Assembly: GCA_964291625.2 (NCBI GenBank)
Contig: OZ220089.1
Coordinates: 3,232,001 to 3,296,000, forward strand
Direction of reading: 5' to 3'
From: Candidatus Latescibacterota bacterium
Lineage (GTDB): Bacteria > Latescibacterota > UBA2968 > UBA8231
DNA length: 64,000 nt
Shown here: positions 8,939 to 30,054 of the stretch, piece by piece
Position numbering within the stretch: position 1 is the stretch's first letter
Layout of the letters: each line of letters opens with the position of its first letter
Made by a program: the position numbers and the translations under genes
The notes under the pieces: model-generated
What the model was told of the DNA's origin: nothing
Seen by the model: the letters and a program-made list of their open reading frames with translations, nothing else
The model's database searches: none

Positions 8939-11900
8939 ATGAGAGTGAAAAGTCGAACAGGAATTCTCTGGTGCACCCTGCGTCCAGGCCCGGGTTCTGT
9001 CCTGATCGGCCTGCTTGGGTCGATCGCGTTTCACGACCCCGCCCAGGGCGCCGGTTTCTACCTTGAATGTCTCACCACAGAGGTTCGGGAAGGCGATTCT
9101 TTCGTCGTCACCCTCGTATACACCTCCTCCACCACCAGCATTATAGGCGCCTACTGGCACACTGACGCGGGCACTGCCGACTCCACCGATTACGTGGCCC
9201 AGGAGAATGAACTCCACTGGGGTAGCGTGGAAGATTCGAGGAACAGCCGTGTAGACCACACCTTCAGCACCCGTGAAGACACCCTGATCGAGGGTAACGA
9301 GACCTTCACGGTTTTCTTCACTCCCACGGACAACGTCGTGGACATGAACGACCCCGACCGCGACAACGCGTGCGGGATCACCATCATCGACGACGACCCC
9401 GGCATCACGAGGGTCAGCGTTGTCTCGACCCCGGCCAGGGACGAAACCTACGGGGTGGGCGAAACCATCAGATTCGGGGCGACCTTCAGCCGCGCGGTGG
9501 AGGTGGACGGCAATCCGGCACTTGGCCTCTGGGTCGGCAGCAACTGGAGGTCCGCCCGTTACCTCTGGGGTTCCGGCACCAGGAGACTGGCGTTCGGCTA
9601 CACGGTGAAGTCGGAGGACTCCGACAGCGACGGCGTGAGCATGGACGGCGGTTACCAGGACAGCCAGGGCCAGTGGCACAACTTCATCAACCACACCGCG
9701 GTCACGGCGGTGGGAACAGATACAGTCGCCTACCGGGCCTATGCCGGCATCGGCCACCAGTCGGGCCACAAGGTGGACGGCAGCCTCACTCCCATCGGCA
9801 CCGGAATGGAGATCACCTCCACACCTGCCGGTGGGGACAGCACCTACCGCTACGGGGAGACCATCACCGTTGCTCTCACCTTCAGCGCGGCCGTGGATGT
9901 CGACGGAACGGTTCTGTTGAACGCTCGAGCGGGAACCGGCGACGACACCTGGCGCGGGGTCAGGTACCAGGAGGGCTCCGGCACCCGAACCCTGGTCTTC
10001 GGCTACACGGTGCAGTCGAAAGACCTGGATACCGACGGATTCAGGGTGGAGGGAAGCTACGTCCAGGACGGTGTCCGCCGCGGTTTCGGCGGCAGCGGCA
10101 CCGTAAAGGTCAAGGGCACCGACACCGAGGTGCCGCCGAACTTCTCCGGCCTGTCGGACCAGTCCGGCCACAAGCTGGACGGCCGGCCATACGCCAGAAC
10201 GATCTCCATCACCTCCACCCCCACGGCCAGGAGCGACACCTACGGCAAGGGCGACACGATCCAGGTCAGCATCGACTTCGGCCAGGCAGTGGACGCCGGG
10301 GACGGTGTCATCGCCATCATCAGGATGGGTTCGATCTTGAACCAGAGGCAACCGCCGGTCGCTTCGGGCAGCGGCACCGACACTCTGCGGTTCGAGTACG
10401 AGGTCGTGGAAGGGGACCGGGACAGCAACGGGATCGATGCCTTCCTGCCCCATGGCCTGGACATCAAGGCTGCGGGCACCGACATCGCCTACGTGCCCAA
10501 CCCTGGAGGGGAGACTCCTGCCATGGGCGAAGACCCCGCCCACAAGGTGGACGCCAGGCTCATAGGAAACGACACCCGGGCCCCCACCATCTCTTCGATA
10601 TCCTTCACCGACAGTCCGGGGCCGGGTGCGGATTCCACCTACGTCGCAGACGACTACATCGGGGTCTGGGTGACCTTCAGCGAGAGGGTGCTCGCCACCG
10701 GGGCGCCCCAGGTGGAGCTCGACATCGGCGGCACGGCGCGGATTGCCCGGTACGGACAACTGGCCGGCGGAAGGACGATCGACCCGAGGGTCCAGGGCGT
10801 CGCCAACGCCACGTTGGTATTCGGCTACACCGTGCAGGAAGGGGACGTCGACAGCGACGGCATCTCCATAGGCGAGAACAAGGTGTCCCTGAACGGCGGC
10901 ACGATCGCTGACGAGGCCAGCAACGCGGCGGTATTGACCCACAGCGCCGTGGCGGCCGACCCGGGACACAAGGTGGACGCACCGGACACTACGGCGCCGA
11001 CCGTGTCGTCGGTGGCCATCACCTCCAACGCCGGGGACGACTCCACCTACGCCATCGGCGACAGCATCCGGGTGACGGTGACCTTCAGCGAGGACGTGAC
11101 GGTGAACGTGGGCGGCACCCTGCAGCTGCTGGTCGAGCTGGATGTCGGCGGCACCGCCAGGAACGCGGACTACCACAGCAGCGATTCGTCGGCTGTCGTC
11201 TTCAACTACACGGTGGCGTCGGGGGACGCGGATTCAGACGGCATCTCCATCGGCGCCGACAAGATCAGTCTGGACGACGCCACCATCCGGGACGCCGCGG
11301 GCAACGACGCGACCCTGACCCAAACGGCGGACCCGGAGGTGATCGCCGCCCACCCGACGGTGGCCGCCGATGCCGCTCACAAGGTGGACGGCGTGCGCCC
11401 GGCCTTCTCGAGCGCGGCGACCTCCACGGACGGCACGAAGGTGATCGTCACCTTCAGCGAGGAGACCACCGTGCCGGCGCTGCTGCGCTCGATCAGCACC
11501 ATGGTGAACGTCGCCCTGGATCGGTTCTACATCGCGGTCGTGGGCGTTACCGTGGACGACGACGAGGTGGTCCCAACCGCCGCCAGCCTTGCCGATACCA
11601 CCCTCACAATGACTTTGGGATCGGCTGTAACCCAGAGCCAGGAAGTGGAGGTGGCCTACGACAACATCTTCGCCCGCGACGCCGTCGGCCTCTTCATCGA
11701 CGGGGCCGGCAACGCCCTGCACCCCTTCTCCTCCCGGGATGTCACCAACAACTCCACCGTTGCCGACGCCGACGCGGGGGACGACCCGCCGGCCCTGACG
11801 CTGAGCCACACGGAGCTCGAGATCACCGAAGGGGCGACCTTCGACTACACCGTGGTCTTGGGAAGCGAGCCCACGGCGGACGTGACCGTTACGATCACGA

Positions 11901-12109
11901 GCTCTTCGACCAAGCTGTCGGCGAGTTCGACAACCCTCACGTTCACCACGGGAGACTGGGAGACGGCGCAGTCGGTGAGGCTCACCGCCAACCAGGACGA
12001 CGACGACCTCAACTACTGGGTGAGCGTGGCCCACACGGCCAGCGGTGGAGGCTACGACTCGTCGGCGGCGAATCTGTACGTGGTCATCGACGACGATGAC
12101 GACGAATAG
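8939..12109 (+). CDS. Cassette gene A1: secreted Ig-like repeat (adhesin-like) protein with Calx-beta-like and SwmB-like domains
   Basis: Signal peptide (…PAQGA); Calx-beta-like N-domain (GTADSTDY...DTLIEGNETF); five ~130-aa repeats (TYxxG...TFSE...SGSGT..LVF.Y.V...DxDxDG...HKVD); ends VVIDDDDDE. Confidence 0.8.
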   Translation: MRVKSRTGILWCTLRPGPGSVLIGLLGSIAFHDPAQGAGFYLECLTTEVREGDSFVVTLVYTSSTTSIIGAYWHTDAGTADSTDYVAQENELHWGSVEDSRNSRVDHTFSTREDTLIEGNETFTVFFTPTDNVVDMNDPDRDNACGITIIDDDPGITRVSVVSTPARDETYGVGETIRFGATFSRAVEVDGNPALGLWVGSNWRSARYLWGSGTRRLAFGYTVKSEDSDSDGVSMDGGYQDSQGQWHNFINHTAVTAVGTDTVAYRAYAGIGHQSGHKVDGSLTPIGTGMEITSTPAGGDSTYRYGETITVALTFSAAVDVDGTVLLNARAGTGDDTWRGVRYQEGSGTRTLVFGYTVQSKDLDTDGFRVEGSYVQDGVRRGFGGSGTVKVKGTDTEVPPNFSGLSDQSGHKLDGRPYARTISITSTPTARSDTYGKGDTIQVSIDFGQAVDAGDGVIAIIRMGSILNQRQPPVASGSGTDTLRFEYEVVEGDRDSNGIDAFLPHGLDIKAAGTDIAYVPNPGGETPAMGEDPAHKVDARLIGNDTRAPTISSISFTDSPGPGADSTYVADDYIGVWVTFSERVLATGAPQVELDIGGTARIARYGQLAGGRTIDPRVQGVANATLVFGYTVQEGDVDSDGISIGENKVSLNGGTIADEASNAAVLTHSAVAADPGHKVDAPDTTAPTVSSVAITSNAGDDSTYAIGDSIRVTVTFSEDVTVNVGGTLQLLVELDVGGTARNADYHSSDSSAVVFNYTVASGDADSDGISIGADKISLDDATIRDAAGNDATLTQTADPEVIAAHPTVAADAAHKVDGVRPAFSSAATSTDGTKVIVTFSEETTVPALLRSISTMVNVALDRFYIAVVGVTVDDDEVVPTAASLADTTLTMTLGSAVTQSQEVEVAYDNIFARDAVGLFIDGAGNALHPFSSRDVTNNSTVADADAGDDPPALTLSHTELEITEGATFDYTVVLGSEPTADVTVTITSSSTKLSASSTTLTFTTGDWETAQSVRLTANQDDDDLNYWVSVAHTASGGGYDSSAANLYVVIDDDDDE

Positions 12110-12136
12110 TCGAAAATCGAAGAGCCTGAATTTCAA

Positions 12137-13387
12137 ATGAAGTCCTTGATTTTCGCTTTAGCGGTTATCCATCCCCTTTCGCTGTGGGCCGACCACCCCG
12201 CCCCCCGGCCTCTGGATTCCTGGGAGCTGGCGGGGAACAGTCTGAAGTTCGACGTCGCAACCATTCTCGCCCAGGCGGATGAAGGGGGTGAACCCATACC
12301 CGCAACGCCCTCCGTCACCCTGGAGCTCTTCGAAGGCAACTTCTTCAAGCTCTCCATCCTCACCGAGGCGGAGGAGGGGTACACCTTTCCTCACTTCCTT
12401 CCCGGTCCGCCCGTCCACAGCCCTCCCCCTTCAACGAGGGCTGCGGCGGGGTTCGGATATTTCAGCACGCACTCCGATACCCTGCGGTTCAACGCCCACT
12501 ATCTGAAGCTGTTCGCAGACGGGGAGGACCTGGAAGAGATCATCGGGCGCTCCGGCGACGCCGGGGCGATCGATGAATACAAGCTGGTCATCTCCCTGGT
12601 GAACGGTCTGTACCTGGATCTGTTCAACCACCTGTACGCGTACGAGTCCGCCGACCGGCTGGTGTTCCTGCTGCCGGCGGGCAGCCCGTTCACCGAGGCA
12701 ATGGGGGATCCGGCCGGTGGCGTCGTCTGGGAGCTGGAAAGAGCCGGAGCGACACCGTCCCCGTCGTTGACGGCGGTGAAGGCCAGGGTGCCGGGCGAAG
12801 GGGCCGCGGGCCTGACCCTCGAGTTCGGGCGCGCCGTGGCCGGCAGACCCGTCCACTACGCCTGGGGGGGGATCACCGACGAAACCGGCCGGGTGGAGCT
12901 GACCCTGTCCACTCTGGACCGGTCCGGGGCCACCGGCTTCTACCGGGCCCGGGCAAGCAACCAGGAGGGTCAGGTGGTGGGCAAGTGGCACAGCATTCCC
13001 CTCAACGAGAACCGACGCCAGGTCCTGGAGCTGACCCCGGGAGGAGACGCCCGGGTGGTGTCCAGCCAGTGGCTGGGCGCGGCCAAGACTGCCGCCGGTG
13101 GGGAGCCGGTGGCCATCGGCCTGGCGCGCAATTTCCCCAACCCCTTCAACAGCAGCACCCGGATCGTCTACCGGCTGGCCAACCCCGGTCCGGTGAGTCT
13201 GGAGATCTACAACACCCTCGGACAGCCGCTGGCCACCCTGGTGGACGAGGTCCAGGCCCCCGGCCGTTACCAGGTGCACTGGGACGCCCGCGACCAGCGC
13301 GGTGCTGCGGTGGCCGCCGGGGTCTACCTGACGCGCCTGGTGTATCCGGGAGGAGTGGAGACGCGGCGCGTGCTGTATCTCAAGTAG
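12137..13387 (+). CDS. Cassette gene B1: secreted protein with C-terminal FlgD-Ig/T9SS-type domain
   Basis: Signal peptide (…SLWA); C-terminal LARNFPNPFN...GVYLTRL...YLK; close paralog of 17098-18366. Confidence 0.85.
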   Translation: MKSLIFALAVIHPLSLWADHPAPRPLDSWELAGNSLKFDVATILAQADEGGEPIPATPSVTLELFEGNFFKLSILTEAEEGYTFPHFLPGPPVHSPPPSTRAAAGFGYFSTHSDTLRFNAHYLKLFADGEDLEEIIGRSGDAGAIDEYKLVISLVNGLYLDLFNHLYAYESADRLVFLLPAGSPFTEAMGDPAGGVVWELERAGATPSPSLTAVKARVPGEGAAGLTLEFGRAVAGRPVHYAWGGITDETGRVELTLSTLDRSGATGFYRARASNQEGQVVGKWHSIPLNENRRQVLELTPGGDARVVSSQWLGAAKTAAGGEPVAIGLARNFPNPFNSSTRIVYRLANPGPVSLEIYNTLGQPLATLVDEVQAPGRYQVHWDARDQRGAAVAAGVYLTRLVYPGGVETRRVLYLK

Positions 13388-13462
13388 CTCTCCTGAAATG
13401 GTCCCTGCGCATACATGAAACCAGGAATCGCGTTACCCCATTAAAAGAGGGGAGGAATTCCG

Positions 13463-14233
13463 ATGAGACGCATCGTGTCTCCTTCAATTGCTCTGTTCAT
13501 GGGCCTGGCATCCAGCCTTCGGGCGGACCTGGTACCGTTCGAAGGACAGGTACTGGACCTCAGGTCCGCGCCGGTCCATCGGGCCGAGGTGGTGCTCTTC
13601 AACCTCGACAACCCCAGTTCGAGGGTGAGCACGACAACCGACGAGAGCGGCTCCTTCTCGATGTCCCTGGCCGACCTGGCCCTGCCGCGATCGAACGCGC
13701 TGGGGCAGAACTACCCGAATCCGTTCAACCCTTCCACCCTGATCCCCTTTGAGATCGCTGAGAGCGGACACGTTCGCCTGGACGTGTTCAACATCCTGGG
13801 CCAGCGCATGGTCACGCTGATAGATGAACAGCGCCGGGCCGGTCTCTACCAGGCGCAGTGGGACGCCACCGACGCCGAGGGCCGCCCGGTGGGTACCGGG
13901 GTTTACATCTACCGGCTCACCACGGGGAACTGGCAGGAGACGCGCAAGCTGGTCCTGATCGACGGCCCGGCGGGGAGCCCGAACGGGAGCGGCGGGAACA
14001 TCGAGGGGGAGGGGGCCAGGTACGGTGTGGAGATCTCCGGCGAGGAGATCCTCCCGGCGACCTTCACCTGGAGCCCGGAGATGGGCTCCCTGGTGGCGGA
14101 GGTGACCAGCGTGAACAACGTCCATCCCCCCGATCTCGAGGACTCCGGGATGGCCTCCAGTCCCTTCTACGGGACCAGCCTCGCCTCGGTCATCGAGGTC
14201 GTTTCAGCGTTCTCAAAGCGAGGAAGCGAATGA
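13463..14233 (+). CDS. Cassette gene C1: small secreted protein with FlgD-Ig domain nested in a carboxypeptidase-regulatory-like fold
   Basis: Signal peptide (…SLRA); EGQV...TTTDESGSF, then LGQNYPNPFNP...GVYIYRL, then YGVEISG; RBS GGAGGA. Confidence 0.85.
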   Translation: MRRIVSPSIALFMGLASSLRADLVPFEGQVLDLRSAPVHRAEVVLFNLDNPSSRVSTTTDESGSFSMSLADLALPRSNALGQNYPNPFNPSTLIPFEIAESGHVRLDVFNILGQRMVTLIDEQRRAGLYQAQWDATDAEGRPVGTGVYIYRLTTGNWQETRKLVLIDGPAGSPNGSGGNIEGEGARYGVEISGEEILPATFTWSPEMGSLVAEVTSVNNVHPPDLEDSGMASSPFYGTSLASVIEVVSAFSKRGSE

Positions 14234-17088: not shown

Positions 17089-17097
17089 GGGAGAGGC

Positions 17098-18366: not shown

Positions 18367-18381
18367 CCGGAGGGAACACCG

Positions 18382-19524: not shown

Positions 19525-22500
19525 ATGGACGCACCCGAATCCACTCCGAGGATTCACGCGCCGTGCTCGGGTGACCTCGGGATTCTGAGGTTCGTGGTCG
19601 TCGGGTTCCTGTGTTTGTTGCCGGGGGCGCTGTCGGAGTCGCGGGTGGAGGGTCAGGGCGGGGCCGTGGTTCCGTCTCGTCTGTACTGGACGGACGGGGG
19701 TCTCGACAAGATCCAGCGTTGCCTGTTGGACGGGTCGGAGGTGGAGGACGTGGTCACCGGCCCGCGTCAGATGCGCGGGCTGGCGGTGGATGTTGCCGGC
19801 CAGCGGCTGTACTGGGCGGACCGGGCCCGCGGCAAGATCCAGCGGTCGGACCTGGATGGCTATGGGGAGCGGGACCTGGTGAGCCACGGCCTGAGCCATC
19901 CCCGGAGCGTGGTGGTGGACCCCGAGGCCGGCCGGATGTACTGGACCGACTCGGGCAGCGACAAGATCCAGGTGGCCGACCTGGACGGCTCGAACGTGCA
20001 GGACCTGATCACGGAAGGCCTCCAGACCCCCCTGGGCCTGGCCCTGGATGGGGACGCCGGGCAGCTATACTGGAGCGACCGGGGCACCGGCAAGATCCAG
20101 CGGTCCCACCTCGACGGCTCCGGGGTGGAGGATCTGGTCACCGGTCTGGGCACCCCCCGGGGCCTGGCCCTGGACCTGGGTGCCGGCCAGATCTACTGGA
20201 CCGACTCCAGTACTGACAAGATCCAGCGATCCAACCTCGACGGCTCCGAGGTGGAGGAGGTGGTGAGCGGTCTGCGCCTGCCGCGGGGCCTGGCCCTGGA
20301 CCCGACCGCGGGCCGGATCTACTGGACGGACTCGGCCGCCGGCAAGATCCAGAGCGCCAACCTGGACGGCTCGGACATGCGCGATCTGGTCACCGGTCTG
20401 CGCGATCCCCGGGGGCTGGCCCTGGCTCTGGCGGAGCCGTCGAACCGCCCCCCGGTGGTGACTCCGATCGAGGACCGCACCCTGGCCGCCGGCGACACCC
20501 TGAGGCTGCCGGTGGGGGGTCAGGATCCGGACGGCGACGAGTTGACTTGGTCGGCGCGCTCCGACGACGAGGCGGTAGCCACTGCAGAGGTCCAGGGCGA
20601 GACCCTGCGCCTCGTGGCCATCGCGCCCGGCCAAGCCTCCATCGAGGTCACCGCCCGCGACCCGGGCGGCCGGAGCGCCACCGAGGCCTTCACCGTCACG
20701 GTGCCGGCCAACCAGCCGCCCGAGGCGGTGGCCCGCCTCTACTGGACGGACGCCGGCACGGGCCGGATCCGCCGGGCCGCCCTCGACGGGTCGGGGGCGG
20801 AAGACCTGATCACCGGGCTGAGTCAGCCCCGGGGCCTGGCCCTGGACGCGGCCGGGGGGCGGCTCTACTGGACCGACAGCCGCGCCGACAAGATCCAGCG
20901 CGCTTCCCTGGACGGCTCGCTGGTGGAGGACCTGGTCACCGACGGCCTGCGGTCGCCCTCGGGTCTGGCCGTCGACCCGGGCGGCGCCAAGGTCTACTGG
21001 AGCGACTACGGCACCCGCCGGATCCAGCGGGCCGACTTGGACGGCAGCGGGGTGGAGGACGTGGTCGTCCGGGGCCTGCGCAGCCCCCTGGGCCTGGCAG
21101 TGGACGGGACCGCTGGCCGGCTCTACTGGACCGACTGGGGCGCCGACCGGATCCAGCGGTCCGGCCTCGACGGCCGGGGCGTGCGCAACCTGGTCACCAC
21201 CGGTTTGCAGTCTCCCCAGGACATCGTCGTGGACCCGGTCGGCGGCTATCTGTACTGGGCCGACTTCGGGACCGACAAGATCCAGCGGGCGGCCCTCGAC
21301 GGCTCGGGGGTGGAGGACGTGATCACCGAGGGCCTGCAGGCTCCCCAGGGTCTGGCGATCGACCCGGCGGCGGGCCGGCTCTACTGGACCGACCCCGGCA
21401 CCGACCGGATCCAGCGGTCCAACCTCGACGGCTCCGAGGTGGAGGACGTGATCACGAAAGACCTGGACACGCCCTACGGGCTGGCCCTGGGCGCGGGTCT
21501 GCCGGCGCGGCAGGTGCGGGCCGGCTACGAGCCGGACACCCTGTCGCTGGCCGGCCGCTTCCTCGACCCGGAGGGCGGCGCCCTGAGCTACCGCGCGGTC
21601 TCGGGGGACACGGCCCTGGCGCTGGCGTCCGTGACCCGGGACACACTGACCGTCACGGGGGTCGCCGCCGGGTACACGTCGATCGAGGTCACCGCGCGGG
21701 ATCCGGAGGGGCTGGAGGCCTCCCTGCCCCTGGCGGTGCGGGTGCTGCCCCACGCCAACCGGCCGCCGGTGCTGACCCCGCTTCCGGACCTGGCCGCCCT
21801 CACCGGGGACACCCTGACCGTCGGCATCGAGGCCACCGACCCCGACGGCGACAGCCTGAGCTACGCGGCCGCTTCCGCTGACACCGCCCTCGTCCAGGCC
21901 AGTACCGCCGATTCGGTGATCACCCTGCGGCCCATCGCGGCGGGCGAGACGTCGATCGCGGTGACGGTCCGCGACGACAGCCTGGCGGTGGCCGACACCT
22001 TCGGGGTGACGGTGTCGTGGTCGAACCGGGCGCCGCAGCCCGGCAGCCTGCGGGCCCGCCAGGTGTTCCTGGGCGGGGTGGCCAGGATCGTCCTGCGCCG
22101 GGAGTTCACCGACCCCGACGGCGACAGCCTGAGCTATACCGCCGCGTCGCGGGACTCGACCGTGGCCACGGCCGCGGTCTCCCGCGACACCCTGACGATC
22201 ACCCCGGTGGCCTCGGGCCGGACGGCGATCGACATGACGGCCACCGATCCGGAGGGCCTGCAGGCGGCCGGGTCCTTCGCCCTCACCGTCCGCCGCCGCC
22301 CCCCGCCCCCACCGCCCGGCGGCGGAGGGGGTGGCGGCGGTGGAGGCGGTGGAGGCGGAGGTTTCTTCATCCCGCCGCCCCCGCCCCCTCCGCCCCGGAC
22401 CACCAACGAGGCGCCGGTCTTCCCCGAGGCGCCGAGCACGTCCCGCACGGTGCCGGAGAACACCGCCGCCAACCGCAACATCCAGCACCCGGTGCGGGCC

Positions 22501-25500
22501 ACCGACGGCGACAACGACCGGCTGACCTACCTGCTCTCCGGCACCGACGCGGACAGCTTCTCCGTGGTCTCCACAAGCGGCCAGTTGCGTACGCGGGCCG
22601 GCATCACCTACGACTTCGAGCTCCGGGACCGCTACCAGGTGCTGCTGGAAGCCGCCGACGGCTACGGCGACACGGCCGACATCGCCGTGACAATCCACCT
22701 GTCCGACGTCGACGAGCCGCCCCGGCCGCCGGCCCGGCCTTTGGTCGAGCCGGCCTCCACGACCCGCCTGACAGTGAGCTGGAGCGAGCCGGTCAACACC
22801 GGCCCCGAGGTCGACGACTACGACGTGCAGTACCGCAGGAGCGGCAGTTTCCTCCCATGGCCTCACGACGGCCCCGGCACGAGCACCACGATCCCGGACC
22901 TGGACCCGAACACCCGCTACGAGGTGCAGGTGCGGGCCTCGAACGCGGAGGGCACGGGCGGCTGGTCGCCTTCGGGCTTCGGCAACACCAGCGCCAACCA
23001 GCGGCCGGTCTTCGACGAGTCCTCTCCCACCCGCACTCTCGACGAGAATACGACCGGGACAAGCGGCATCGGCGGTCCGGTGACCGCCACCGATCCGGAG
23101 AACACCTCCCTGACCTACCGCCTATTGACCGGACGGGACGCGGGCTCCTTCACCATCGGCGAGGCCAGCGGGCAGCTGCGCACGCGGGACGGCGTGGACT
23201 ACGACTACGAGACGAAGAGCCGCTACTCGGTGTTGGTGGAAGCCGAGGACGAGCACGGCGGCCGCACGACCGTCATCGTGACCATCGACCTGATCGACGA
23301 CGACAGCGAGCAGCCCGGGCGGCCGGCCAAGCCGACGGTGTCGGCCTCGACGTCGAGCAGTCTGTCCATCCGCTGGACGGCCCCGGACAACGCAGGGCCG
23401 GCGATCAACGACTACGACGTGCAGTACAGCGAGGACGGCGGCGCCTTCGAGGCGTGGTCCCACACCGGCCCGGGCACGAGCACGACGATCACCGGTTTGA
23501 CGGCCAACACCCCCTACCGGGTGCAGGTGCTGGCGCGCAGCGACGAGGGCGAGAGCCTCTGGTCCGAGTCGGTCGAGGCCACGACCAGCGCCAACCGGGC
23601 GCCCACCTTCAACGAGGGGAACCGCACCACACGGAGCTTTGCGGAAAACACCACCGGGACCAACGACATCGGCAACCCGGTGACCGCCACCGACCGCGAC
23701 GGGGGCACGCCCGACTACAGCCTCGAGGGCACGGACGCGGCGAGTTTCACCATCGACGCGAGCGACGGACAGCTGCAGACCGGGTCCGGCCAGACCTGGG
23801 ACTTCGAGGAGAAAGACCGCTACGAGGTAATCGTGCGGGTCGAGGACGGCCAGGGCGGCAGCAACACCATCGAGGTCACGATCCATCTGACCGACCTGCA
23901 GGAACCGCCGGAAACCCCGGCGGCCCCCAGCGTCTCGGCGGCCTCGTCGACGAGTCTTGCGGTGACTTGGGATGAACCGGCCAACACCGGTCCCGACATC
24001 ACCGACTACGACGTGCAGTACCGGCCGCGGGACACCGGCGGTTTCCGCGGCTGGAGCCACACCGGCGCCGAACGCACGGCCACGATCCCCAGTCTGATCC
24101 CGGACTCCACCTACCAGGTGCAGGTGCTGGCGCGCAGTCCCGAAGGGGCCAGCGGCTGGTCGCCGACGGGCACGGGCACCACCGGCCCCAACGGGCTGCC
24201 CCTCTTCACCGACGGGTCGAGCGCCACCCGCAGCTTCGACGAGAACACCACCGGCGTCGTCGGTGTCGGCGATCCGGTGAGCGCCACCGATCCGGAGAAC
24301 ACGACCCCGACCTACAGCCTCCAGGGGGCGGATGCCGATTCCTTCACCATCGACACCCGCAGCGGACAACTGCGCACCCGGGCGGACAAGATTTGGGACT
24401 ACGAGACCAGGTCCAGCTTTTCGGTCTCGGTGAAGGCCGTGGACGGCCACCAGGGGGAGCGCACCATCCCGGTCTCCATCGACCTGAACGACCTCAACGA
24501 GGCGCCGGTCTTCACCAGCGGCGCGGCCTTCGAAGCGGCGGAAAACCAGACCTTCGCCGGCCGGGTGGAGGCGGAGGATCTCGACAACGCCGACGATATC
24601 ACCGGCTACACCCTCACCGGCGGCGCCGACCGCGACCGCCTGGAGATCGACAACGCAGGCTCCCTGACCTTCCAGGAGGCCCCCGACTTCGAGAGCCCTT
24701 CGGACGCGGGAGGCAACCGGCAGTACAACGTGGTCGTCACCGCCACCGGGGGCGGCGGAGGCCGCGCCCTGACCGCTCAGCAGTCGATCGCCGTCACCCT
24801 CACCGATGAGAACGAGCCGCCGGTGTTCACCAGCGCCGACACCTTCGAGATCCGCGAGAACACCCGGGTCGCCGGCCGCGTGACCGCCCGCGACGTCGAC
24901 GCCGGCGACGCCGTCACCGGCTACGAGGTCACCGGCGGCGCCGACCGGGACGAGTTCGAGATCGTCAGCACCAACCAGCTGCGCTTCAAGGACGACGACG
25001 ACCCCGACTTCGAGGACCCGGACGATTCGGGGGGCGGCAACGACTACAGCGTGGTGGTGGAGGCCACCGGCGGCACGGATCCCCGGGACATGACCGCCTC
25101 CAAGACGGTCGTCGTCCTCGTGGAGGACGTGAACGAACCGCCGGCCCGGCCCGACCCGCCCGCCGTCAGCGACGAGACGGAGAGCAGCCTGACCGTGAGC
25201 TGGGACGAGCCGGCCAACACCGGCCCCGTGATCAGCAACTACCACGTGCAGTACCGCCACAGCGGGACCTATCTCGCCTGGTCCGACAGCGGCGCCGCCC
25301 GGAGCCGCGTGATCACCGGCCTGCGCTCGGGACGGAACTACCAGATCCAGGTGCAGGCCAAGAACGACGAGGGCACGGGAGCCTGGTCCAACGCCGGCAG
25401 CGGCCGGACGCTCACCGCGCCGACGGTCTCCCGCGTCGCCTTCACCTCGACCCCGGCCACGGGACAGAACAACACCTACAAGCTCAGCGACACCCTCGAC

Positions 25501-28500
25501 GTGACCGTCACCTTCAGCGAGGCGGTGACCGTCACCGGCACGCCCCAGGTCGACCTGACCCTCGGCTCCAACGTGCGCCAGGCGGACTACGAGAGCGGCT
25601 CGGCCACGACCCAGCTCCTGTTCCAGTACGAGGTGCAGGACACCGACCAGGACGACAACGGCGCCGCCATCAACGCCAACGGCCTCAGGCTCAACAGCGG
25701 CCGCATCTTCCTCCAAAGAACCAACACCACCGTCAACGCCGACCTGGTCCACTCGGCCCTCGCCAACCAGTCCCGACACAAGGTCGACGGCGTCGCCCCG
25801 ACCCCCACCAAAGCGGAGGTGGATGGAACCAGGCTGACCCTGACGTATGGCGAAGCGCTCGTCAGCAGCCCAAGGCCGGCCAACACCGATTTCGAAGTGA
25901 CCGTAGACAGCGAGACGCGAGATGTTACCGCGGTAGCCGTCAGCAACACCAAGGTAACCCTCACCCTCGCCTCGGCGGCAAACACGGGGGAGACGGTGGC
26001 CCTGGCCTACACACCGGGGACCAACCCGATCCGCGACCTGGCGCAGAACCCCGCCGGCACCCTCAGCAACCTGGCGGTGACCAACCTCAGAAACGTCTGC
26101 CACCGCACCGCCCAGGTGCGGGACGAGATCATGGATGAAGCAGGGGTCAGCGCCTGCGGCGACGTAACCGCGGACCATCTGGCGGCCATCACCCGCCTCT
26201 CCCTGAGCGACGAGAGCATCTCCACGCTGAAAGCCGGCGACTTTGCCGGTCTTACGAGCCTCGAAAAGCTCTACCTGTCAGACAACAATATCAGCACCCT
26301 GCCGGAGAACATCTTCTCCGACCTGTCGGCCCTGGAGGAGCTCTACCTCAAGCAGAACAACCTCTCCAACCTCGGAGCGAACACGTTCTCCGGGCTGACC
26401 TCCCTGTCATCTCTCGACATGTCCTTCAGCCAGCTCGGCGACTTCGACGCCGGCTTGTTCTCCGGGCTGACGTCCCTGACCCATCTCGATCTGCTGAGCG
26501 CCCGTATCTTCAACCTGCCGGCCAACGGCTTCTCCGCGTTGACGGCGCTGGAGACACTCATCCTTCGAAGCAACCTCCTGGGTGACCTCGCCGCCGACGA
26601 ATTCTCCGGTTTGTCGGGGCTGGAACACCTCGACCTGAGCAGTACCCGAATCACCAGCCTTCCCGTGGACGCCTTCTCCAACCTGTCCGGGCTCAAGCAC
26701 CTCGACCTGGAGTATGCCCGACTCACCAGCTTTCCGCCGGCCGTGTTCTCCGGCTTGTCGTCGCTCGAACACCTCGGCCTGAACCTCAATAGGATGAGCA
26801 GCGGCAGCCTCGACGCCGGCCTGTTCTCCGGGCTGACGTCCCTGACTCATCTCGACCTGCGCAGCATGGATCTCACCTCCGTGCCCGCCAACCTCTTCTC
26901 CGGGCTGACCGCGCTCGAGTTCCTCGACCTGGGCTACAACAACGACCTCGCCACACTGCCGGCCACCGTCTTTTCCGCCCTGACGGACCTCAGAACCCTG
27001 AACCTGAGAACCAACGACATCTCCACCCTGCCGACCGGTCTTCTTTCCGGACTGACGGAGCTGAGATCGCTGGACCTCAGACAATGGGATCTGTCGACCC
27101 TGCCGGACGGCGCGTTTACCGGACTGACGAAGCTGACCAAGCTCCAGCTCCAGTGGAACCCGGTCGACCCCTTGCCGATCACCGTCTCACTGGAATCGGC
27201 CGGGACGGATCAGTTCCGGGCCAAGGCGCACACCGGCGCGCCCTTTGACATCGTCCTGCCGCTGCGGCTCGCCAACGGCGAGATCGAGGGCGGCGAATCG
27301 AGCCTCACCATTCCGCAGGGCAGCGTCGAGAGCGGAACCCTCACGGTCGCCCGCACCGCCGGGACCAAGGCGGCGGTCACCGTCGATCTCGGGGCGCTGC
27401 CGGAACGGCCCGCCAGCGACAACGGCTACGAGCTGGTGCGGTCCGAGGACCTGCCGCTGGCAGTCATCGACGCCGAAGCCGGGGTGGAGATCTATCCCAC
27501 CGAACTGACCTTGGCAGAGGACGAAAGCGACACCTACACGGTGGTGCTGACCATGCAGCCCACCAGCGACGTGACGGTAACGGTGACCGTGCCGTCGGGG
27601 GCCGATGTCACGGTGAACCCGTCGCCGCTGACTTTCACGACCGACAACTGGGATACACCGCAGACCGTGACGGTGAGTACCAGCGCCGACACCGACAGCG
27701 ACGACGACGAGGTCACCCTCACCCACACCGTAAGCGGGGGCTACCAGGGAGTGACCGCCGATGACGTGGAGGTGACGGTCACGGAGGCCGCGGTCACCAC
27801 CAACAGCCCGCCGTCCATCTTCCACAACTCCTGGACCGTAAACGAGAACTTCACCGGTCACATATCCATAGTGGGAACGGATCCGGATGCCAGGGACTAC
27901 ATCACCGGGTACGAGATCACCGGGGGCCCCGACCGGGCGCTGTTCGAGATCACCACCCGAAGCGGCCGGGGCGAGCTCACCTTCGTCGATGTACCCGACT
28001 TCGAACGTCCGGCGGGCACCAGCAACCGGAATGAGATCGTTGTCACCGTCACCAGCGGCATGGGCACCCGGGAACGGACCGGGCAGCGGCAGATCGCCGT
28101 CAACGTGTCCGACGTGGACGAGCCGCCCGGCCGGCCGCCGGCGCCACGGCTGAGTTTCCGAGACGGAGTTACTCCCACCATCGCGGTGAGCATGGGGGGC
28201 CGGATCCCGCCGGTGAATACGGGGCCGGAAATCACTGGCTGGGGAGTGCAACACCGGGAGAAGGACAGCGGCGACGATTTCACCAGTACCACGTACACGT
28301 CCGCGACCCTGGATGGGCGGATCGAGAATCTGACAAAAGACCTCACTTACGAGGTGCAGGTGCAGGCGAAGAACGACGAAGGCGACAGCGAGTGGTCCCC
28401 CTCGGCGGAGATAGAGATACCCAACCAGCCGCCGGTCGCCGTCGGCACCTTCAACGACCTCACGCTGGCGGTGGGGGGCGCTGTCGAGACCGTATCCGTG

Positions 28501-29928
28501 GACGGCGTGTTCAGCAGCCCGGACCGGGACCTGCTCACCTATACGGTGTCGTCCGGCAACACGGCTGCCGCTACCGTTCGAATGGTCAGCACGGAGATCC
28601 TCGTAGATCCGCAGGCCGCCGGCACCGCGACGATCACGGTAACGGCCAGCGATCCCTATGGCGCGTCCGACTCCGAGACGTTCGACGTCACAGTCCGGAC
28701 ACCGACCCTTTCGGCGCCCACCCTGACCATCACCGGCGACCTCTTCACGCTGTCATTCACGGATGACTTCGCGTCCGAGGAAACCCGGGCCTACCACGTA
28801 CGAATCCGTCAGAAGACGAACCATGGACCCTGGGCGACAGGGTGCCATACCGAGACCAACGATGAAGCTTCTCAACAGTCCATTTCCGTAACGCTGGAGG
28901 ACGCGGTATCGGATCTCTTCGAACCGGGCACCACATATGAGGCCGACTACGGATACCTGGGGGCATCCTGCGACGGCGGCCTGACGGGCTCGAGGTCCGC
29001 GACCGACGAGGAGACCACGTCCGGGACGGCTTCCTTCGATATCGAGCTTGTCTTCGTCGGCAGCGTCTCGTCGACATACCGAACCTATGTTGAAGACGCG
29101 GCCGAGCGCTGGGAGGAGATCATCACCGGCGATCTTCCCAACCATCGTCTATCCAGCAGCAACCGCAGCTTTCTGAATGGGGAATTTCCAGGGACTGCCG
29201 CCCCCGAGGTTGTGGATGACCTCGTGATCTACGTGCGCGTCGTTGACCTGGTCGGTGTGATCGGACAGGGGGCGTCGCTGGTGAGCCGGGTCCCTTCCTT
29301 TCTGCCGGCCGTATCCCAAATCACTCTCGATTCGGACATACTGAGCACGTATTCGGAAGGAATACAGAGAGCCGTCGTTCTGCACGAGATAGGCCACGCG
29401 CTGGGATTCTCAGCCAAGACATGGACATTTCTCGACTTGCTGAAGGACCCCTCCCTCACTCCATTCCAAACTCCCATCGATCCCGCTCCGGACACCTATT
29501 TCCCGGGCGCCAAGGCGATTGTCGCCTTCGACGCGGCGGGTGGAACGAGCTACACCGGCGCCAAGGTGCCGGTGGAGAACGTCGGCGGAGGGGGCAACCG
29601 GGACAGCCACTGGCGGGAATCCGTAATGGACGGCGAACTGATGACGTCAAGGTTGGAATCCTCTTCCAATCCGCTCAGCGCGATCACCATCCAGTCGATG
29701 GCCGACCTCGGCTACACCGTGGATGTCACCCAGGCCGACGCTTACACCCTGCCGTCTACCAACAACTACCCTTCCATTCTTTCTTCCATTTCCGCCAAGC
29801 GGGTTGCAGGTGCGGCCGGAGACGAACAGGAGGAGTTGGTCCTGAACTGTGCCCTGGACCATCCCGAAACCGGACCCGACGAGTCCGAGCCGATCACCCT
29901 GAATTTGCGCAGGGTCAAGAAGGAGTGA
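19525..29928 (+). CDS. Giant secreted multidomain protein: two YWTD (LDL-receptor class B) propellers, Ig/cadherin repeats, FN3 repeats, A-type Ig repeat + SwmB-like domain, ~14 LRRs, C-terminal leishmanolysin (M8)-like Zn metallopeptidase
   Basis: Repeated RLYWTD...KIQRSNLDGS; cadherin motifs (ATDxD, DYE, DVNEPP); FN3 (W..P.NTGP...YDVQY...YEVQV); LRR LxxLxLxxNxLxxLPxxxFSGL; HEIGHALGF plus SHWRESVMDGELMT. ORF is open from 19501; ATG 19525 preferred. Confidence 0.88.
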   Translation: MDAPESTPRIHAPCSGDLGILRFVVVGFLCLLPGALSESRVEGQGGAVVPSRLYWTDGGLDKIQRCLLDGSEVEDVVTGPRQMRGLAVDVAGQRLYWADRARGKIQRSDLDGYGERDLVSHGLSHPRSVVVDPEAGRMYWTDSGSDKIQVADLDGSNVQDLITEGLQTPLGLALDGDAGQLYWSDRGTGKIQRSHLDGSGVEDLVTGLGTPRGLALDLGAGQIYWTDSSTDKIQRSNLDGSEVEEVVSGLRLPRGLALDPTAGRIYWTDSAAGKIQSANLDGSDMRDLVTGLRDPRGLALALAEPSNRPPVVTPIEDRTLAAGDTLRLPVGGQDPDGDELTWSARSDDEAVATAEVQGETLRLVAIAPGQASIEVTARDPGGRSATEAFTVTVPANQPPEAVARLYWTDAGTGRIRRAALDGSGAEDLITGLSQPRGLALDAAGGRLYWTDSRADKIQRASLDGSLVEDLVTDGLRSPSGLAVDPGGAKVYWSDYGTRRIQRADLDGSGVEDVVVRGLRSPLGLAVDGTAGRLYWTDWGADRIQRSGLDGRGVRNLVTTGLQSPQDIVVDPVGGYLYWADFGTDKIQRAALDGSGVEDVITEGLQAPQGLAIDPAAGRLYWTDPGTDRIQRSNLDGSEVEDVITKDLDTPYGLALGAGLPARQVRAGYEPDTLSLAGRFLDPEGGALSYRAVSGDTALALASVTRDTLTVTGVAAGYTSIEVTARDPEGLEASLPLAVRVLPHANRPPVLTPLPDLAALTGDTLTVGIEATDPDGDSLSYAAASADTALVQASTADSVITLRPIAAGETSIAVTVRDDSLAVADTFGVTVSWSNRAPQPGSLRARQVFLGGVARIVLRREFTDPDGDSLSYTAASRDSTVATAAVSRDTLTITPVASGRTAIDMTATDPEGLQAAGSFALTVRRRPPPPPPGGGGGGGGGGGGGGGFFIPPPPPPPPRTTNEAPVFPEAPSTSRTVPENTAANRNIQHPVRATDGDNDRLTYLLSGTDADSFSVVSTSGQLRTRAGITYDFELRDRYQVLLEAADGYGDTADIAVTIHLSDVDEPPRPPARPLVEPASTTRLTVSWSEPVNTGPEVDDYDVQYRRSGSFLPWPHDGPGTSTTIPDLDPNTRYEVQVRASNAEGTGGWSPSGFGNTSANQRPVFDESSPTRTLDENTTGTSGIGGPVTATDPENTSLTYRLLTGRDAGSFTIGEASGQLRTRDGVDYDYETKSRYSVLVEAEDEHGGRTTVIVTIDLIDDDSEQPGRPAKPTVSASTSSSLSIRWTAPDNAGPAINDYDVQYSEDGGAFEAWSHTGPGTSTTITGLTANTPYRVQVLARSDEGESLWSESVEATTSANRAPTFNEGNRTTRSFAENTTGTNDIGNPVTATDRDGGTPDYSLEGTDAASFTIDASDGQLQTGSGQTWDFEEKDRYEVIVRVEDGQGGSNTIEVTIHLTDLQEPPETPAAPSVSAASSTSLAVTWDEPANTGPDITDYDVQYRPRDTGGFRGWSHTGAERTATIPSLIPDSTYQVQVLARSPEGASGWSPTGTGTTGPNGLPLFTDGSSATRSFDENTTGVVGVGDPVSATDPENTTPTYSLQGADADSFTIDTRSGQLRTRADKIWDYETRSSFSVSVKAVDGHQGERTIPVSIDLNDLNEAPVFTSGAAFEAAENQTFAGRVEAEDLDNADDITGYTLTGGADRDRLEIDNAGSLTFQEAPDFESPSDAGGNRQYNVVVTATGGGGGRALTAQQSIAVTLTDENEPPVFTSADTFEIRENTRVAGRVTARDVDAGDAVTGYEVTGGADRDEFEIVSTNQLRFKDDDDPDFEDPDDSGGGNDYSVVVEATGGTDPRDMTASKTVVVLVEDVNEPPARPDPPAVSDETESSLTVSWDEPANTGPVISNYHVQYRHSGTYLAWSDSGAARSRVITGLRSGRNYQIQVQAKNDEGTGAWSNAGSGRTLTAPTVSRVAFTSTPATGQNNTYKLSDTLDVTVTFSEAVTVTGTPQVDLTLGSNVRQADYESGSATTQLLFQYEVQDTDQDDNGAAINANGLRLNSGRIFLQRTNTTVNADLVHSALANQSRHKVDGVAPTPTKAEVDGTRLTLTYGEALVSSPRPANTDFEVTVDSETRDVTAVAVSNTKVTLTLASAANTGETVALAYTPGTNPIRDLAQNPAGTLSNLAVTNLRNVCHRTAQVRDEIMDEAGVSACGDVTADHLAAITRLSLSDESISTLKAGDFAGLTSLEKLYLSDNNISTLPENIFSDLSALEELYLKQNNLSNLGANTFSGLTSLSSLDMSFSQLGDFDAGLFSGLTSLTHLDLLSARIFNLPANGFSALTALETLILRSNLLGDLAADEFSGLSGLEHLDLSSTRITSLPVDAFSNLSGLKHLDLEYARLTSFPPAVFSGLSSLEHLGLNLNRMSSGSLDAGLFSGLTSLTHLDLRSMDLTSVPANLFSGLTALEFLDLGYNNDLATLPATVFSALTDLRTLNLRTNDISTLPTGLLSGLTELRSLDLRQWDLSTLPDGAFTGLTKLTKLQLQWNPVDPLPITVSLESAGTDQFRAKAHTGAPFDIVLPLRLANGEIEGGESSLTIPQGSVESGTLTVARTAGTKAAVTVDLGALPERPASDNGYELVRSEDLPLAVIDAEAGVEIYPTELTLAEDESDTYTVVLTMQPTSDVTVTVTVPSGADVTVNPSPLTFTTDNWDTPQTVTVSTSADTDSDDDEVTLTHTVSGGYQGVTADDVEVTVTEAAVTTNSPPSIFHNSWTVNENFTGHISIVGTDPDARDYITGYEITGGPDRALFEITTRSGRGELTFVDVPDFERPAGTSNRNEIVVTVTSGMGTRERTGQRQIAVNVSDVDEPPGRPPAPRLSFRDGVTPTIAVSMGGRIPPVNTGPEITGWGVQHREKDSGDDFTSTTYTSATLDGRIENLTKDLTYEVQVQAKNDEGDSEWSPSAEIEIPNQPPVAVGTFNDLTLAVGGAVETVSVDGVFSSPDRDLLTYTVSSGNTAAATVRMVSTEILVDPQAAGTATITVTASDPYGASDSETFDVTVRTPTLSAPTLTITGDLFTLSFTDDFASEETRAYHVRIRQKTNHGPWATGCHTETNDEASQQSISVTLEDAVSDLFEPGTTYEADYGYLGASCDGGLTGSRSATDEETTSGTASFDIELVFVGSVSSTYRTYVEDAAERWEEIITGDLPNHRLSSSNRSFLNGEFPGTAAPEVVDDLVIYVRVVDLVGVIGQGASLVSRVPSFLPAVSQITLDSDILSTYSEGIQRAVVLHEIGHALGFSAKTWTFLDLLKDPSLTPFQTPIDPAPDTYFPGAKAIVAFDAAGGTSYTGAKVPVENVGGGGNRDSHWRESVMDGELMTSRLESSSNPLSAITIQSMADLGYTVDVTQADAYTLPSTNNYPSILSSISAKRVAGAAGDEQEELVLNCALDHPETGPDESEPITLNLRRVKKE

Positions 29929-30054
29929 GAGGGCGTCCGGCCGCCGTTGCCGGCCGAACTCGACATGCCCCAGGTGGGACCGAATCACCTTCTCCGGGAT
30001 CGACCTGGACTCGGTGATTCAGGTCATCACCGCGCTCTGATTCGGCCAGGGTGC
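29929..30054 (+). pseudogene. Frameshifted relic of the 3' end of a C-type cassette gene (repeat copy 2)
   Basis: Matches 19027-19150 and has a 1-nt insertion (aatcaccttc vs aatcccttc); starts immediately after the giant gene's stop. Confidence 0.85.

Follow-up and report, generated by a model that had tools for sequence, protein, structure and literature searches.

This locus bears on the question of how sponge symbionts place their many eukaryote-like repeat and adhesin proteins on the cell surface. In the excerpted account of PMC8163846, genes for cadherin, fn3 and repeat proteins are transferred laterally among sponge symbionts, and few of their lineages encode classical secretion systems. 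The genome studied here, from a Candidatus Latescibacterota bacterium, ties such proteins to T9SS-type domains by a classical C-terminal placement, by an undescribed N-terminal placement, and by a CTD-less adhesin with two CTD-bearing neighbours. The last arrangement lies in the window (the whole 64,000-nt stretch of DNA that was analysed), where a first-pass annotation had seen a repeated three-gene cassette, A-B-C. The relevant features are:

5300-8350, minus strand: sigma-54 enhancer-binding protein with a Reg_prop/Y_Y_Y sensor (Pfam), divergent to the cassette
8939-12109, plus strand: A1, 1056 aa; Sec-type N-terminus, HKVD/DxDxDG Ig repeats and tail module, without a T9SS sorting domain
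11372-12106, plus strand: tail module of A1 (aa 812-1056); SwmB-like and Calx-like 'LTFTTxxW' domains, ending in VVIDDDD
12137-13387, plus strand: B1, 416 aa; orphan N-domain, Ig-like domain and C-terminal T9SS type A sorting domain
13463-14233, plus strand: C1, 256 aa; signal peptide, CarboxypepD_reg-like domain, internal CTD-like FlgD_ig, G/P linker and 90-aa tail
14230-17088, plus strand: A2, 952 aa; second adhesin type, its ATG overlapping the C1 stop codon (ATGA)
14330-17090, plus strand: segment exchanged horizontally; mature A2 coding region, beginning just past the signal peptide (GPSEVFADHE...) and closing with the stop codon
17098-18366, plus strand: B2, 422 aa; paralogue of B1 (77.7%), sorting domain at aa 338-419
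18382-19137, plus strand: C2, 251 aa; divergent C
19525-29928, plus strand: giant gene for a secreted multidomain protein, 3467 aa from its ATG; the open reading frame starts from TTG at 19501
29929-30065, plus strand: 137-nt relic of a C2-type gene, aligned with the C2 3' end

The genes follow one another as A1-B1-C1-A2-B2-C2-giant-relic with intra-unit gaps of 27, 75, 9 and 15 nt, and the reported coupling of C1 and A2 is visible in their ATGA overlap. By BLASTP, B1 and B2 share 77.7% identity, C1 and C2 53.1%, and A1 and A2 43.7% over 916 aa, in line with the annotated strong conservation of B and clear conservation of C. The host genome holds exactly two A, two B and two C genes plus the one relic. 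An assembly artefact was ruled out as the origin of the tandem, since contigs built from short reads of run X1, which may be the source sample, span every junction with 0 differences (C1 to A2 at 13809-14420) and the same A1..A2 tandem is present in two further genomes, G105 and G160. Contigs from an RNA run span A1 to B1 (11918-12201) and B2 to C2 (18232-18542), where DNA carry-over is possible. Contig joints from 12105 to 16973 fall in GAC-repeat (poly-Asp) codons at both A ends, and we read them as alignment slips.

Across the phylum, B is present at 22 loci in 17 of 168 genomes. An A-like gene ends no more than about 70 nt upstream of B at 21 of these loci, the remaining B standing at a contig start, and C lies directly downstream at 19 of the 22. 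True C orthologues were found in the 17 genomes with B and in G056, which retains a B remnant. Some genomes carry two units with different A types, and incomplete units also occur: unit 1 of G105 is A1-C, without B, and G160 has A1-B-A2-B, without C. The synteny supports A-B-C as a real, conserved cassette. Its occurrence is limited to a few sponge-associated genomes within a single phylum, and near-identical stretches occur in sponge metagenome runs.

Both B and C match FlgD_ig / Por_Secre_tail in Pfam and exceed the TIGR04183 cut-off of 23 bits (B1 34.1, B2 33.4, C1 43.8 and C2 44.4 bits). The annotated FlgD-Ig/T9SS-CTD-like domain is therefore present in both proteins, but the C copy is internal (aa 84-164 of 256 in C1 and of 251 in C2) and belongs to an 'N-terminal' subfamily, whereas the B copy occupies the extreme C-terminus (aa 333-416 of 416 in B1, aa 338-419 of 422 in B2). 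Because of this difference in placement we filed B, and not C, as cargo. In B1 the sorting domain (aa 333-416) follows the N-domain (aa 22-205) and an Ig-like domain (aa ~205-325), and the predicted structure consists of beta-sandwich-type domains plus the CTD. The model of aa 324-416 aligned to the PorU CTD with a Z of 10.0 and an rmsd of 2.5 over 89 residues, to PorZ with a Z of 8.1 and to the RgpB CTD with a Z of 7.6; this fold comparison covers B only, the C model (pLDDT 36) being unusable. Gingipain RgpB is an example of T9SS type A CTD cargo, and PorU and PorZ keep their CTDs. By sorting-domain score, C-terminal position and modelled CTD fold, B is a predicted T9SS type A cargo.

The N-domain of B represents an orphan family, with seven matches at E<=0.001 among 1.84 billion representatives, five of them B proteins or fragments. 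Its fold gave no clear match in Foldseek and VIA, whose lists were filled by the CTD, and the Atlas offered lipocalin-like leads only (0.79-0.83, under the 0.9 line). A scan of metagenome contigs with the N-domain returned 116 pattern matches, none of them a relative.

C1 is built from a CarboxypepD_reg-like domain (aa 27-68), the CTD-like FlgD_ig (aa 84-164) and a conserved 90-aa tail, and by this domain placement C is not a classical T9SS cargo. Among the 118 such Ig domains in the genome, that of C clusters exclusively (support 0.919) with the 12 copies that lie N-terminally; these stand on proteins of 758-2077 aa ahead of Dockerin_1, CARDB, YWTD, LRR or WD40 domains; Dockerin_1 follows in 6 of 10 paralogues. 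Since its clade mates front large repeat proteins, C has the appearance of a handle without a cargo, and it looks like the clade's 'N-terminal handle' (a CarboxypepD_reg and a CTD-like Ig domain) in free-standing form, with its own 90-aa tail. The tail is an orphan family as well (16 proteins found). C2 is 53% identical to C1 and 45-56% identical to every other C compared. One alignment of C sequences leaves out rows L044, L047 (whose range contains a stop) and L048. CHU_C reached C at a sub-threshold 17 bits against a cut-off of 27, and neither B nor C matched the PorP family.

As for the secretion machinery, whose presence the annotation had made a point to check, SprA (607 bits summed) and two PorU genes (572 and 537 bits) score over their cut-offs. 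A PorV-like gene adjoining PorU stays below its cut-off of 250 with 114+37 bits, and the GldL and GldM models of NCBIfam matched nothing in the genome, in searches whose controls matched nowhere either. The genome also yields 127 CTD-like matches, plus many eukaryote-like repeat proteins. The likeness to T9SS type A cargo thus consists in the signal-peptide-like N-terminus of B, its C-terminal TIGR04183 domain, a CTD fold resembling that of PorU, PorZ and RgpB, and the encoded SprA and PorU. The differences are the large adhesin A without a CTD, the internal domain of C with 90 further residues after it, and a host outside Bacteroidota.

The absence of an FlgD-Ig/CTD domain from the A genes was confirmed: A1, A2 and the giant gave no sorting-domain match in Pfam or NCBIfam, no tblastn CTD match, and no type B CTD match (CHU_C PF13585 / TIGR04131) at E<=0.01, and A1 and A2 matched 0 NCBIfam families of any kind. 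The HKVD-type DxDxDG Ig repeats described for A are readable in the translations and correspond to DNA repeat family D3. The A heads vary, comprising two Ig-repeat types (A1 and A2) and one LRR type, the Calx+fn3+LRR head being found in G061, G040, G104, G090 and G056. Irrespective of head type, the A-slot proteins share a tail module of 240 aa at the extreme C-terminus. It is conserved in 22 of 22 aligned proteins with a mean column identity of 67%, and no other part of A is as well conserved. Neither its profile nor A1 retrieved anything from the PDB by sequence (best E 0.25). The 'SwmB-like' label of one A domain comes from the first-pass annotation and from weak similarity, the first half of the tail resembling the SWM stretch of the giant. 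For SWM_repeat itself (PF13753), A1 and A2 gave no match at E<=0.01 and the A of G104 scored 22.4 bits, below the cut-off. SwmB-type giants resemble the locus in that the giant matches SWM_repeat; they differ in that A1 and A2 do not reach the Pfam model and no link to swimming motility appears here.

The A slot had been called swappable and far more divergent than B and C. The divergence holds within the host genome, where A1 and A2 differ as given above, but not across families: A1 and A2 are each an old type with 84-93% conservation, and A1 orthologues in G105, G054 and G055 are 85-91% identical. The lineage-specific parts of the cassette are B and C rather than A. Compared with seven genomes of another family, A2 shows 84-89% protein and about 90-92% DNA identity, against protein identities of 53-59% for B, 69% for GlnA and 41% for UbiD in the same comparison. 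At four-fold sites A2 is 86-89% identical, the adjacent B 47-56%, and two housekeeping genes 39-53%, the figure for GlnA being 38.6% (a baseline that leaves out rows L053, L054 and L057). In 100-nt bins, DNA identity to G052 is 82-99% within 14330-17090, 26-44% before it and 46-75% after it, and the break points are sharp: one coincides with the signal-peptide junction or the start codon, the other with the stop codon. Families stay separate in the B tree (100/100) but are intermingled in the tree of the A tail. The C genes of three genomes of genus g24 (family f3) match C1 at 67-70% of four-fold sites (n about 80). This exceeds the 39-53% of the housekeeping genes, and the contrast with A is accordingly less clean for C than for B.

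With break points at the two edges of the gene, and different heads on one tail module, the slot is really swapped. The alignments show A genes to have been replaced by recombination, from the start codon or signal-peptide junction to the stop codon; different families therefore have adhesin alleles in common, yet each retains its own B and C. The A-B-C order survives replacement of A by an allele of another family. In the g24 genomes, GC3 is about 0.82 in A and about 0.72-0.79 in its neighbours, which hints that their A was imported from the higher-GC family. This clean between-family replacement of a mature adhesin gene stands independently of any mechanism, and it documents at high resolution a gene-exact, modular exchange between symbionts that live together. 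It shares habitat, domain types and lateral transfer of attachment genes with the eukaryote-like adhesins of sponge symbionts, as far as the excerpted literature describes them; it differs in that one gene of a fixed three-gene cassette is swapped at the signal-peptide junction and stop codon, and in that the cassette proteins are tied to T9SS-type domains.

The annotation had proposed that B and C export or tether A in trans, and that they carry or anchor A is plausible from sequence. Our preferred account, held tentatively and at somewhat short of an even chance, is a mobile, operon-like, tandem-duplicated three-gene surface module in which B and C take A out or hold it through the tail module. 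As part of this account, and with the same reserve, A would be a Sec-exported, calcium-binding Ig-repeat adhesin with an interchangeable head, lacking a T9SS signal. B and C would travel to the surface by way of the T9SS and, by binding the conserved tail module, hold A there or aid its exit, so that any head could be displayed. B1 and B2 are each other's near relatives and B does not track the A type, which fits a partner reading the shared tail and not the head.

The nearest working analogy is SprB-SprF and PG1035-PorP, in which, in the excerpt of PMC9143113, a type B CTD cargo has a neighbour-encoded PorP/SprF-like partner that binds it and anchors it at the surface. The likeness is a large adhesin gene followed by dedicated small partner gene(s). 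The partners described there, however, are outer-membrane beta-barrels and the cargo carries a type B CTD, whereas A lacks CHU_C/type B domains and B and C are soluble-looking Ig proteins with type A-like domains. Hitchhiker ('piggyback') transport by the Tat route and into the peroxisome (PMC9251779, in part) and cohesin-dockerin pairing resemble the cassette in idea, a signal-less protein being exported or displayed by a signal-bearing partner. Dockerin_1 does follow the same N-terminal handle in the six paralogues mentioned, but A, B and C have no Dockerin_1 or cohesin match, and T9SS hitchhiking is absent from the excerpted hitchhiker account. A literature search found no T9SS export of a CTD-less partner; if the neighbours act in trans, the cassette would represent adaptor-mediated T9SS display outside Bacteroidota, of which that search returned no earlier case.

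A broader version of the preferred account would make B and C trans-acting 'handles', C-terminal-type and N-terminal-type respectively, that bind the A tail and export it via the T9SS or tether it. The cis N-terminal handle on at least 10 LRR/YWTD/WD40 proteins would then be a general surface route for eukaryote-like symbiont proteins, and the A slot a plug-in site for traded adhesin alleles. We consider this extension doubtful.

Among the alternatives, the one that survives best has A exporting or anchoring itself, with the tail module as a new secretion or anchoring signal and B and C as accessory co-adhesins, shield or maturation factors. Conservation in A peaks in this module, which is extreme C-terminal as a sorting signal would be, and units without B or without C exist. 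A-like genes with the full module (40-45% identity) also occur in tandem in G072 and singly in G078, with no match to the B N-domain or C tail beside them (16 kb and 8.8 kb), a result of tblastn alone at lower-GC loci (L083, L084). Non-type-A T9SS signals with a dedicated neighbour gene are known too, namely the type B CTD with PorP/SprF in the excerpted PMC9143113. However, the Calx-like half of the module behaves as an ordinary internal repeat elsewhere, with 12 tandem matches at C1:1018-1024 kb (a genome coordinate, not the C1 gene) and a copy in the giant, unlike a dedicated signal; no sorting-domain model of Pfam or NCBIfam matches the module, and strict A-B-C synteny would be left unexplained. 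We regard self-export as unlikely.

Co-regulation and co-transfer alone, with secreted proteins gathered in a genomic islet and the tandem a plain segmental duplication, appear improbable. The abundance of CTD-like domains and eukaryote-like repeat proteins noted above makes such neighbours common, and sponge symbionts are reported to exchange genes for cadherin, fn3 and repeat proteins laterally (PMC8163846, in part); yet the B N-domain and the C tail are orphan families found only in the cassette, and the gene order outlasts replacement of A by an other-family allele. A recognition or competition module (self/non-self or host type), with A as polymorphic ligand, B and C as lineage-specific receptors or protectors and shared A alleles reflecting selection for a common 'type', would suit the discrete, highly conserved A types (A1, A2 and LRR), the lineage-specific B and C and the paired units of different type in some genomes, but it is very improbable given that A, B and C contain no toxin, nuclease or immunity-like domain in Pfam or NCBIfam and that B does not co-vary with A type.

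Regulation of the cassette by the divergent sigma-54 enhancer-binding protein is possible, and genes of this kind lie just upstream of A in five other loci. A search for a -24/-12 promoter (TGGCAC-N5-TTGC) ahead of A1, between 8350 and 8939, was negative with 0 and with up to 2 mismatches allowed; the whole window contains 16 matches to this pattern against 17.6 expected.

The giant had been read as the A gene of a third unit carrying the same modules as A1 and A2. Two regions are indeed shared with A, aa 1964-2175 (Ig/SWM) and aa 2655-2760 (a single Calx-like 'LTFT' domain), but both are internal with LRRs between them, and most of the giant is unlike A: YWTD propellers with fn3, cadherin and LRR domains make up most of the protein, alongside Big_9, SWM repeat and Calx-like domains. 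PF13753 reaches 55 bits against a cut-off of 27, whereas TIGR02059, at 39.0 bits, stays below its cut-off of 40.1. Its C-terminus bears an M8-like zincin domain with HEIGH in place of the A tail module, which speaks against the third-unit reading, and on its domain content the giant is not a clear third A. The C-gene remnant described behind it was recovered: the 137 nt at 29929-30065 align to 19027-19163, the 3' end of C2 plus about 26 nt past its stop codon, with one 1-nt insertion.

Two tandem units, each of a large Ig-repeat adhesin-type gene (A) and two small partners with sorting-type domains (B and C), are followed in the window by a giant gene. The ORF map gave the one-strand order and short gaps (27, 75, 9 and 15 nt within units) that the first-pass annotation had described, and the claimed C1/A2 coupling was found as an ATGA overlap of the C1 stop with the A2 ATG.

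Genes of the cassette region (ORF map, window coordinates).
8939-12109, + strand, A1
12137-13387, + strand, B1
13463-14233, + strand, C1
14230-17088, + strand, A2
17098-18366, + strand, B2
18382-19137, + strand, C2
19525-29928, + strand, giant gene, 3467 aa counted from ATG

By BLASTP, the paralogues share 77.7 % (B1/B2), 53.1 % (C1/C2) and 43.7 % (A1/A2) identity. B and C matched FlgD_ig / Por_Secre_tail and, above cut-off, TIGR04183, the T9SS type A C-terminal domain (CTD); the same models and a tblastn CTD search gave no sorting-domain match in A1, A2 or the giant. The annotated contrast between conserved, CTD-like-domain-bearing B and C and an A slot without this domain therefore stands. 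Contigs from short-read run X1, possibly the source sample, span all cassette junctions including C1 to A2 with 0 differences, and the A1 to A2 tandem is also present in two other genomes, so the tandem is real and not an assembly artefact. The observation of a tandem A-B-C cassette is thereby confirmed.

For the distribution of the cassette, the N-terminal 210 aa of B were located in 22 places, in 17 of 168 genomes and 6 of 49 genera of the phylum; about 20 kb was fetched around each of the 20 places outside the window, and counts were taken over all 22 B genes. An A-like gene ends within about 70 nt upstream in 21 of the 22, the remaining one lying 178 nt from its contig start, and C follows directly in 19 (one of these C frameshifted), so the proposed neighbourhood of B and C with A-like genes is the rule. 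Of the other B genes, one precedes a C-like N-module that continues into an ORF of 1917 aa, one in genome G160 precedes A2 and not C, and one is cut by a contig end. Unit 1 of G105 is A1-C without B, G049 has the order A-A-B-C, and G056 retains A and C with a remnant of B; all 17 B genomes, and G056 as well, have a true C orthologue. A profile search with the B N-domain against 1.84 billion representatives hit 7 proteins (E<=0.001), of which 5 were B itself or pieces of it; a pattern scan across the genomes of 185,579 species gave 19 loci, all in genomes known from the phylum search, and no relative was found by the pattern scan of JGI metagenome contigs. The C tail, confined to 16 proteins in a database search, is as narrow. 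The cassette is conserved but narrow in distribution, and the B N-domain is, as judged by its sequence, an orphan.

The A-slot proteins differ in their heads, with two Ig-repeat types (A1 and A2), intermediate Ig types in G073, G057 and G049, and a Calx-beta + fn3 + LRR type in G061, G040, G104, G090 and G056. Their last about 240 aa are common to all 22 aligned proteins (mean column identity 67 %), and this tail module consists of a SwmB-like domain and a Calx-like 'LTFTTxxW...VVIDDDD' domain. The A slot had been called far more divergent than B and C, which holds between A1 and A2 within the window genome but not across families: identity is 84-93 % for A2-type proteins (10 genomes of two families) and 85-91 % for A1-type proteins (4 genomes of two families), against 53-65 % for B and 45-58 % for C between those families. 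As a housekeeping baseline, the window genome and g24, a genus of the other family f3, share 68-69 % in GlnA and 41 % in UbiD.

Four-fold degenerate sites agreed at 86-89 % for A2 (against g24 genomes G052, G048 and G054) and 77-81 % for A1 (G054 and G055); the adjacent genes in the same genomes gave 47-56 % for B and 44-70 % for C. The corresponding values were 38.6 % for GlnA against G055, and 53.1 % against G052 and 88.5 % against the same-genus genome G160 for UbiD. Binned by 100 nt, identity to G052 runs at 26-44 % up to 14330, rises to 82-99 % between there and about 17030, and falls to 46-75 % in B2. Nine aligned A2-type 5' ends keep a signal peptide of their own per family and are about 90 % identical from GPSEVFADHE... 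onward; the A1 high-identity tract starts at the start codon. The families stand apart in the B tree (100/100) and intermix within the A2 clade of the A tail tree, and B sequence does not follow A type. Slow evolution of A beside fast B and C is ruled out because synonymous sites, too, are conserved in A. Assembly cross-talk is countered by distinct alleles per genome, several in single-contig assemblies. With its sharp identity edges, high four-fold identity and conflicting trees, the A slot is really swapped between families, as the annotation had proposed. Lateral movement of genes for cadherin, fn3 and repeat proteins between sponge symbionts is described in general terms in the available part of PMC8163846; what is new here is gene-exact replacement within a fixed cassette. 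There are hints that transfer ran from the higher-GC family to g24. GC3 at g24 loci L043-L048 is about 0.82 in the imported A, 0.70-0.75 in B/C and 0.72-0.79 in most neighbours; window A, B and C all have 0.80-0.87.

A structure model of B (pLDDT 71, from a 33-sequence alignment) superposes aa 324-416 on the CTDs of PorU (Z 10.0), PorZ and RgpB. An Ig-like domain at aa about 205-325 is common to 5 other loci in the same genome, and the C-terminal half recurs in many relatives' proteins of ~300-710 aa (about 49-63 % query cover, 48-65 % identity). For aa 22-205 no clear fold match was found, a lipocalin-like fold being a lead only.

Protein C begins with a signal-peptide-like segment and a CarboxypepD_reg-like stretch; the CTD-like Ig domain (aa 84-164) comes next, and a G/P-rich linker leads to a conserved tail, which in the alignment ends ...NPFSGTSLASIIQVVSA. 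By eye, these last residues (window 14180-14230 and 19084-19134) look like the sorting domain first-strand motif NYPNPFNPSTLIPFEI; that such a lone strand could complement another Ig-like domain is pure speculation. Among 127 CTD-like domains found in the genome by tblastn, 85 end <=10 aa and 24 end 11-40 aa before the stop; the other 18 lie farther from the stop (>40 aa), and behind 12 of them another 520-1860 residues follow. Of these 12, eleven sit about 80-400 aa from the beginning of the open frame and the twelfth (C1:913053, on contig C1) 940 aa from it. A Pfam scan of ten such ORFs (758-2077 aa) found FlgD_ig near the start in 10/10, CarboxypepD_reg ahead of it in 8/10 and Dockerin_1 behind it in 6/10, then CARDB, YWTD propellers, LRR, WD40 or an M66-like peptidase; the Pfam tables held no second, C-terminal FlgD_ig/CTD copy. 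At least 10 large secreted proteins with a T9SS-CTD-like FlgD_ig near the N-terminus, an 'N-terminal handle', form a family.

N-terminal handle proteins in the window genome, G000.
Contig C1: 1669036-1671312
Contig C1: 3998701-4001607
Contig C1: 3741991-3745179
Contig C1: 892330-896046
Contig C1: 1661254-1665162
Contig C1: 1143528-1147451
Contig C1: 957140-962911
Contig C1: 900900-906962
Contig C1: 3650313-3656546
Contig C2: 1058270-1062091

Many large ORFs from genomes of the same family also carry the full two-domain handle module, at 50-57 % identity. A tree of 118 CTD-like domains unites the 12 N-terminal copies with those of proteins C1 and C2 to the exclusion of all others (support 0.919); C is therefore a short free member of the handle family and not a classical C-terminal cargo. 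C2 is an outlier (45-56 % identity to all other C compared) and the second unit of G105 holds a C1-type C (85 %), indicating that C is also shuffled between units; no donor of the C2-type was found among the C compared.

The genome around the window (5.9 Mb, about 68 % G+C) encodes, of the T9SS components in question, SprA (607 bits summed) and two PorU genes above cut-off, among 52 model matches mostly to PorU's CTD part. A PorV-like gene adjoining one PorU scores below the PorV cut-off, and the GldM and GldL models matched nothing in the genome or in control genomes. Cassette-bearing public relatives are titled Gemmatimonadota, Gemmatimonadaceae or Candidatus Latescibacterota MAGs, and near-identical stretches occur in sponge metagenome-labelled runs X2, X3 and X4 from three further studies.

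Established are the build of the three proteins, their conserved gene order, B's connection to the T9SS, the separate class to which the domain of C belongs, and the modular exchange of A. The annotation's idea of B and C as carriers can be put as an adaptor mechanism: as secretion-competent parts, B and C would bind the invariant A tail module, and a CTD-less adhesin with any head would thus be displayed or exported. B and C are found only in cassette context, B does not co-vary with A type, and C resembles a handle with its cis cargo swapped for a small tail, all of which favour this hypothesis; units without B or without C, and A-like genes with neither nearby (by tblastn) in G072 and G078, argue against it, and we regard it as possible, leaning slightly to the doubtful side. 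As a working comparison, the closest system is that in which a PorP/SprF protein encoded by a neighbouring gene binds type B CTD cargo (PMC9143113, available part); the features that define that system were not found in A, B or C. Neither T9SS hitchhiking nor a cassette with a swappable slot was found described in the literature searched, including the available part of PMC9251779. The cassette with its swappable slot is real, and we class it as a T9SS-linked surface-protein operon.

The giant, read earlier as the A slot of a third unit now without B and with only a remnant of C, carries a signal peptide and internal copies of the Ig/SWM + Calx-like modules, and has a C relic behind it, but it does not end in the A tail module and no CTD was found in it; the third-unit reading is at most possible. 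Its C-terminus (29026-29928) is an M8-like (leishmanolysin-like) zincin domain with an intact HEIGHALGF zinc motif, so it may be an adhesin-protease fusion. G105 and G160 have, in place of the giant, a gene behind the cassette for a protein built of N-terminal handle + dockerin + CARDB (+YWTD). The relic (29929-30065), which follows the stop codon of the giant immediately, is a copy of the C2 3' end (about 110 nt) plus about 26 nt of downstream sequence and contains a 1-nt insertion; it shows that rearrangement of the region duplicated or cut a C2-type 3' end. Just past it lies the second copy (30198-30388) of a 191-nt direct repeat, 94 % identical to 4716-4906, a fragment of an unannotated 551-aa gene (3648-5303, - strand) downstream of a sigma-54 activator. 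The position of this fragment suggests an older, larger duplication or rearrangement across the whole cassette region.

Sigma-54 enhancer-binding protein genes stand directly upstream of A in the window (5300-8350, - strand) and at five further loci (L035, L036, L037, L040 and L042), with Reg_prop/Y_Y_Y sensor domains in those of the window and of G073 (L040); a pattern scan found no -24/-12 promoter upstream of A1. At the cassette edge, a DUF4411 + Peptidase_M78 (IrrE-like) gene pair (30403-32102, - strand), in the window's lowest-GC stretch (0.60), looks like an inserted toxin-antitoxin-like or mobile pair. Farther on, 38071-42945 holds an AAA_21/AAA_15 (AbiEii-like) ATPase gene followed by a small unannotated gene, and a DUF4143/AAA_14 ATPase gene on the other strand, which may be defence-related.
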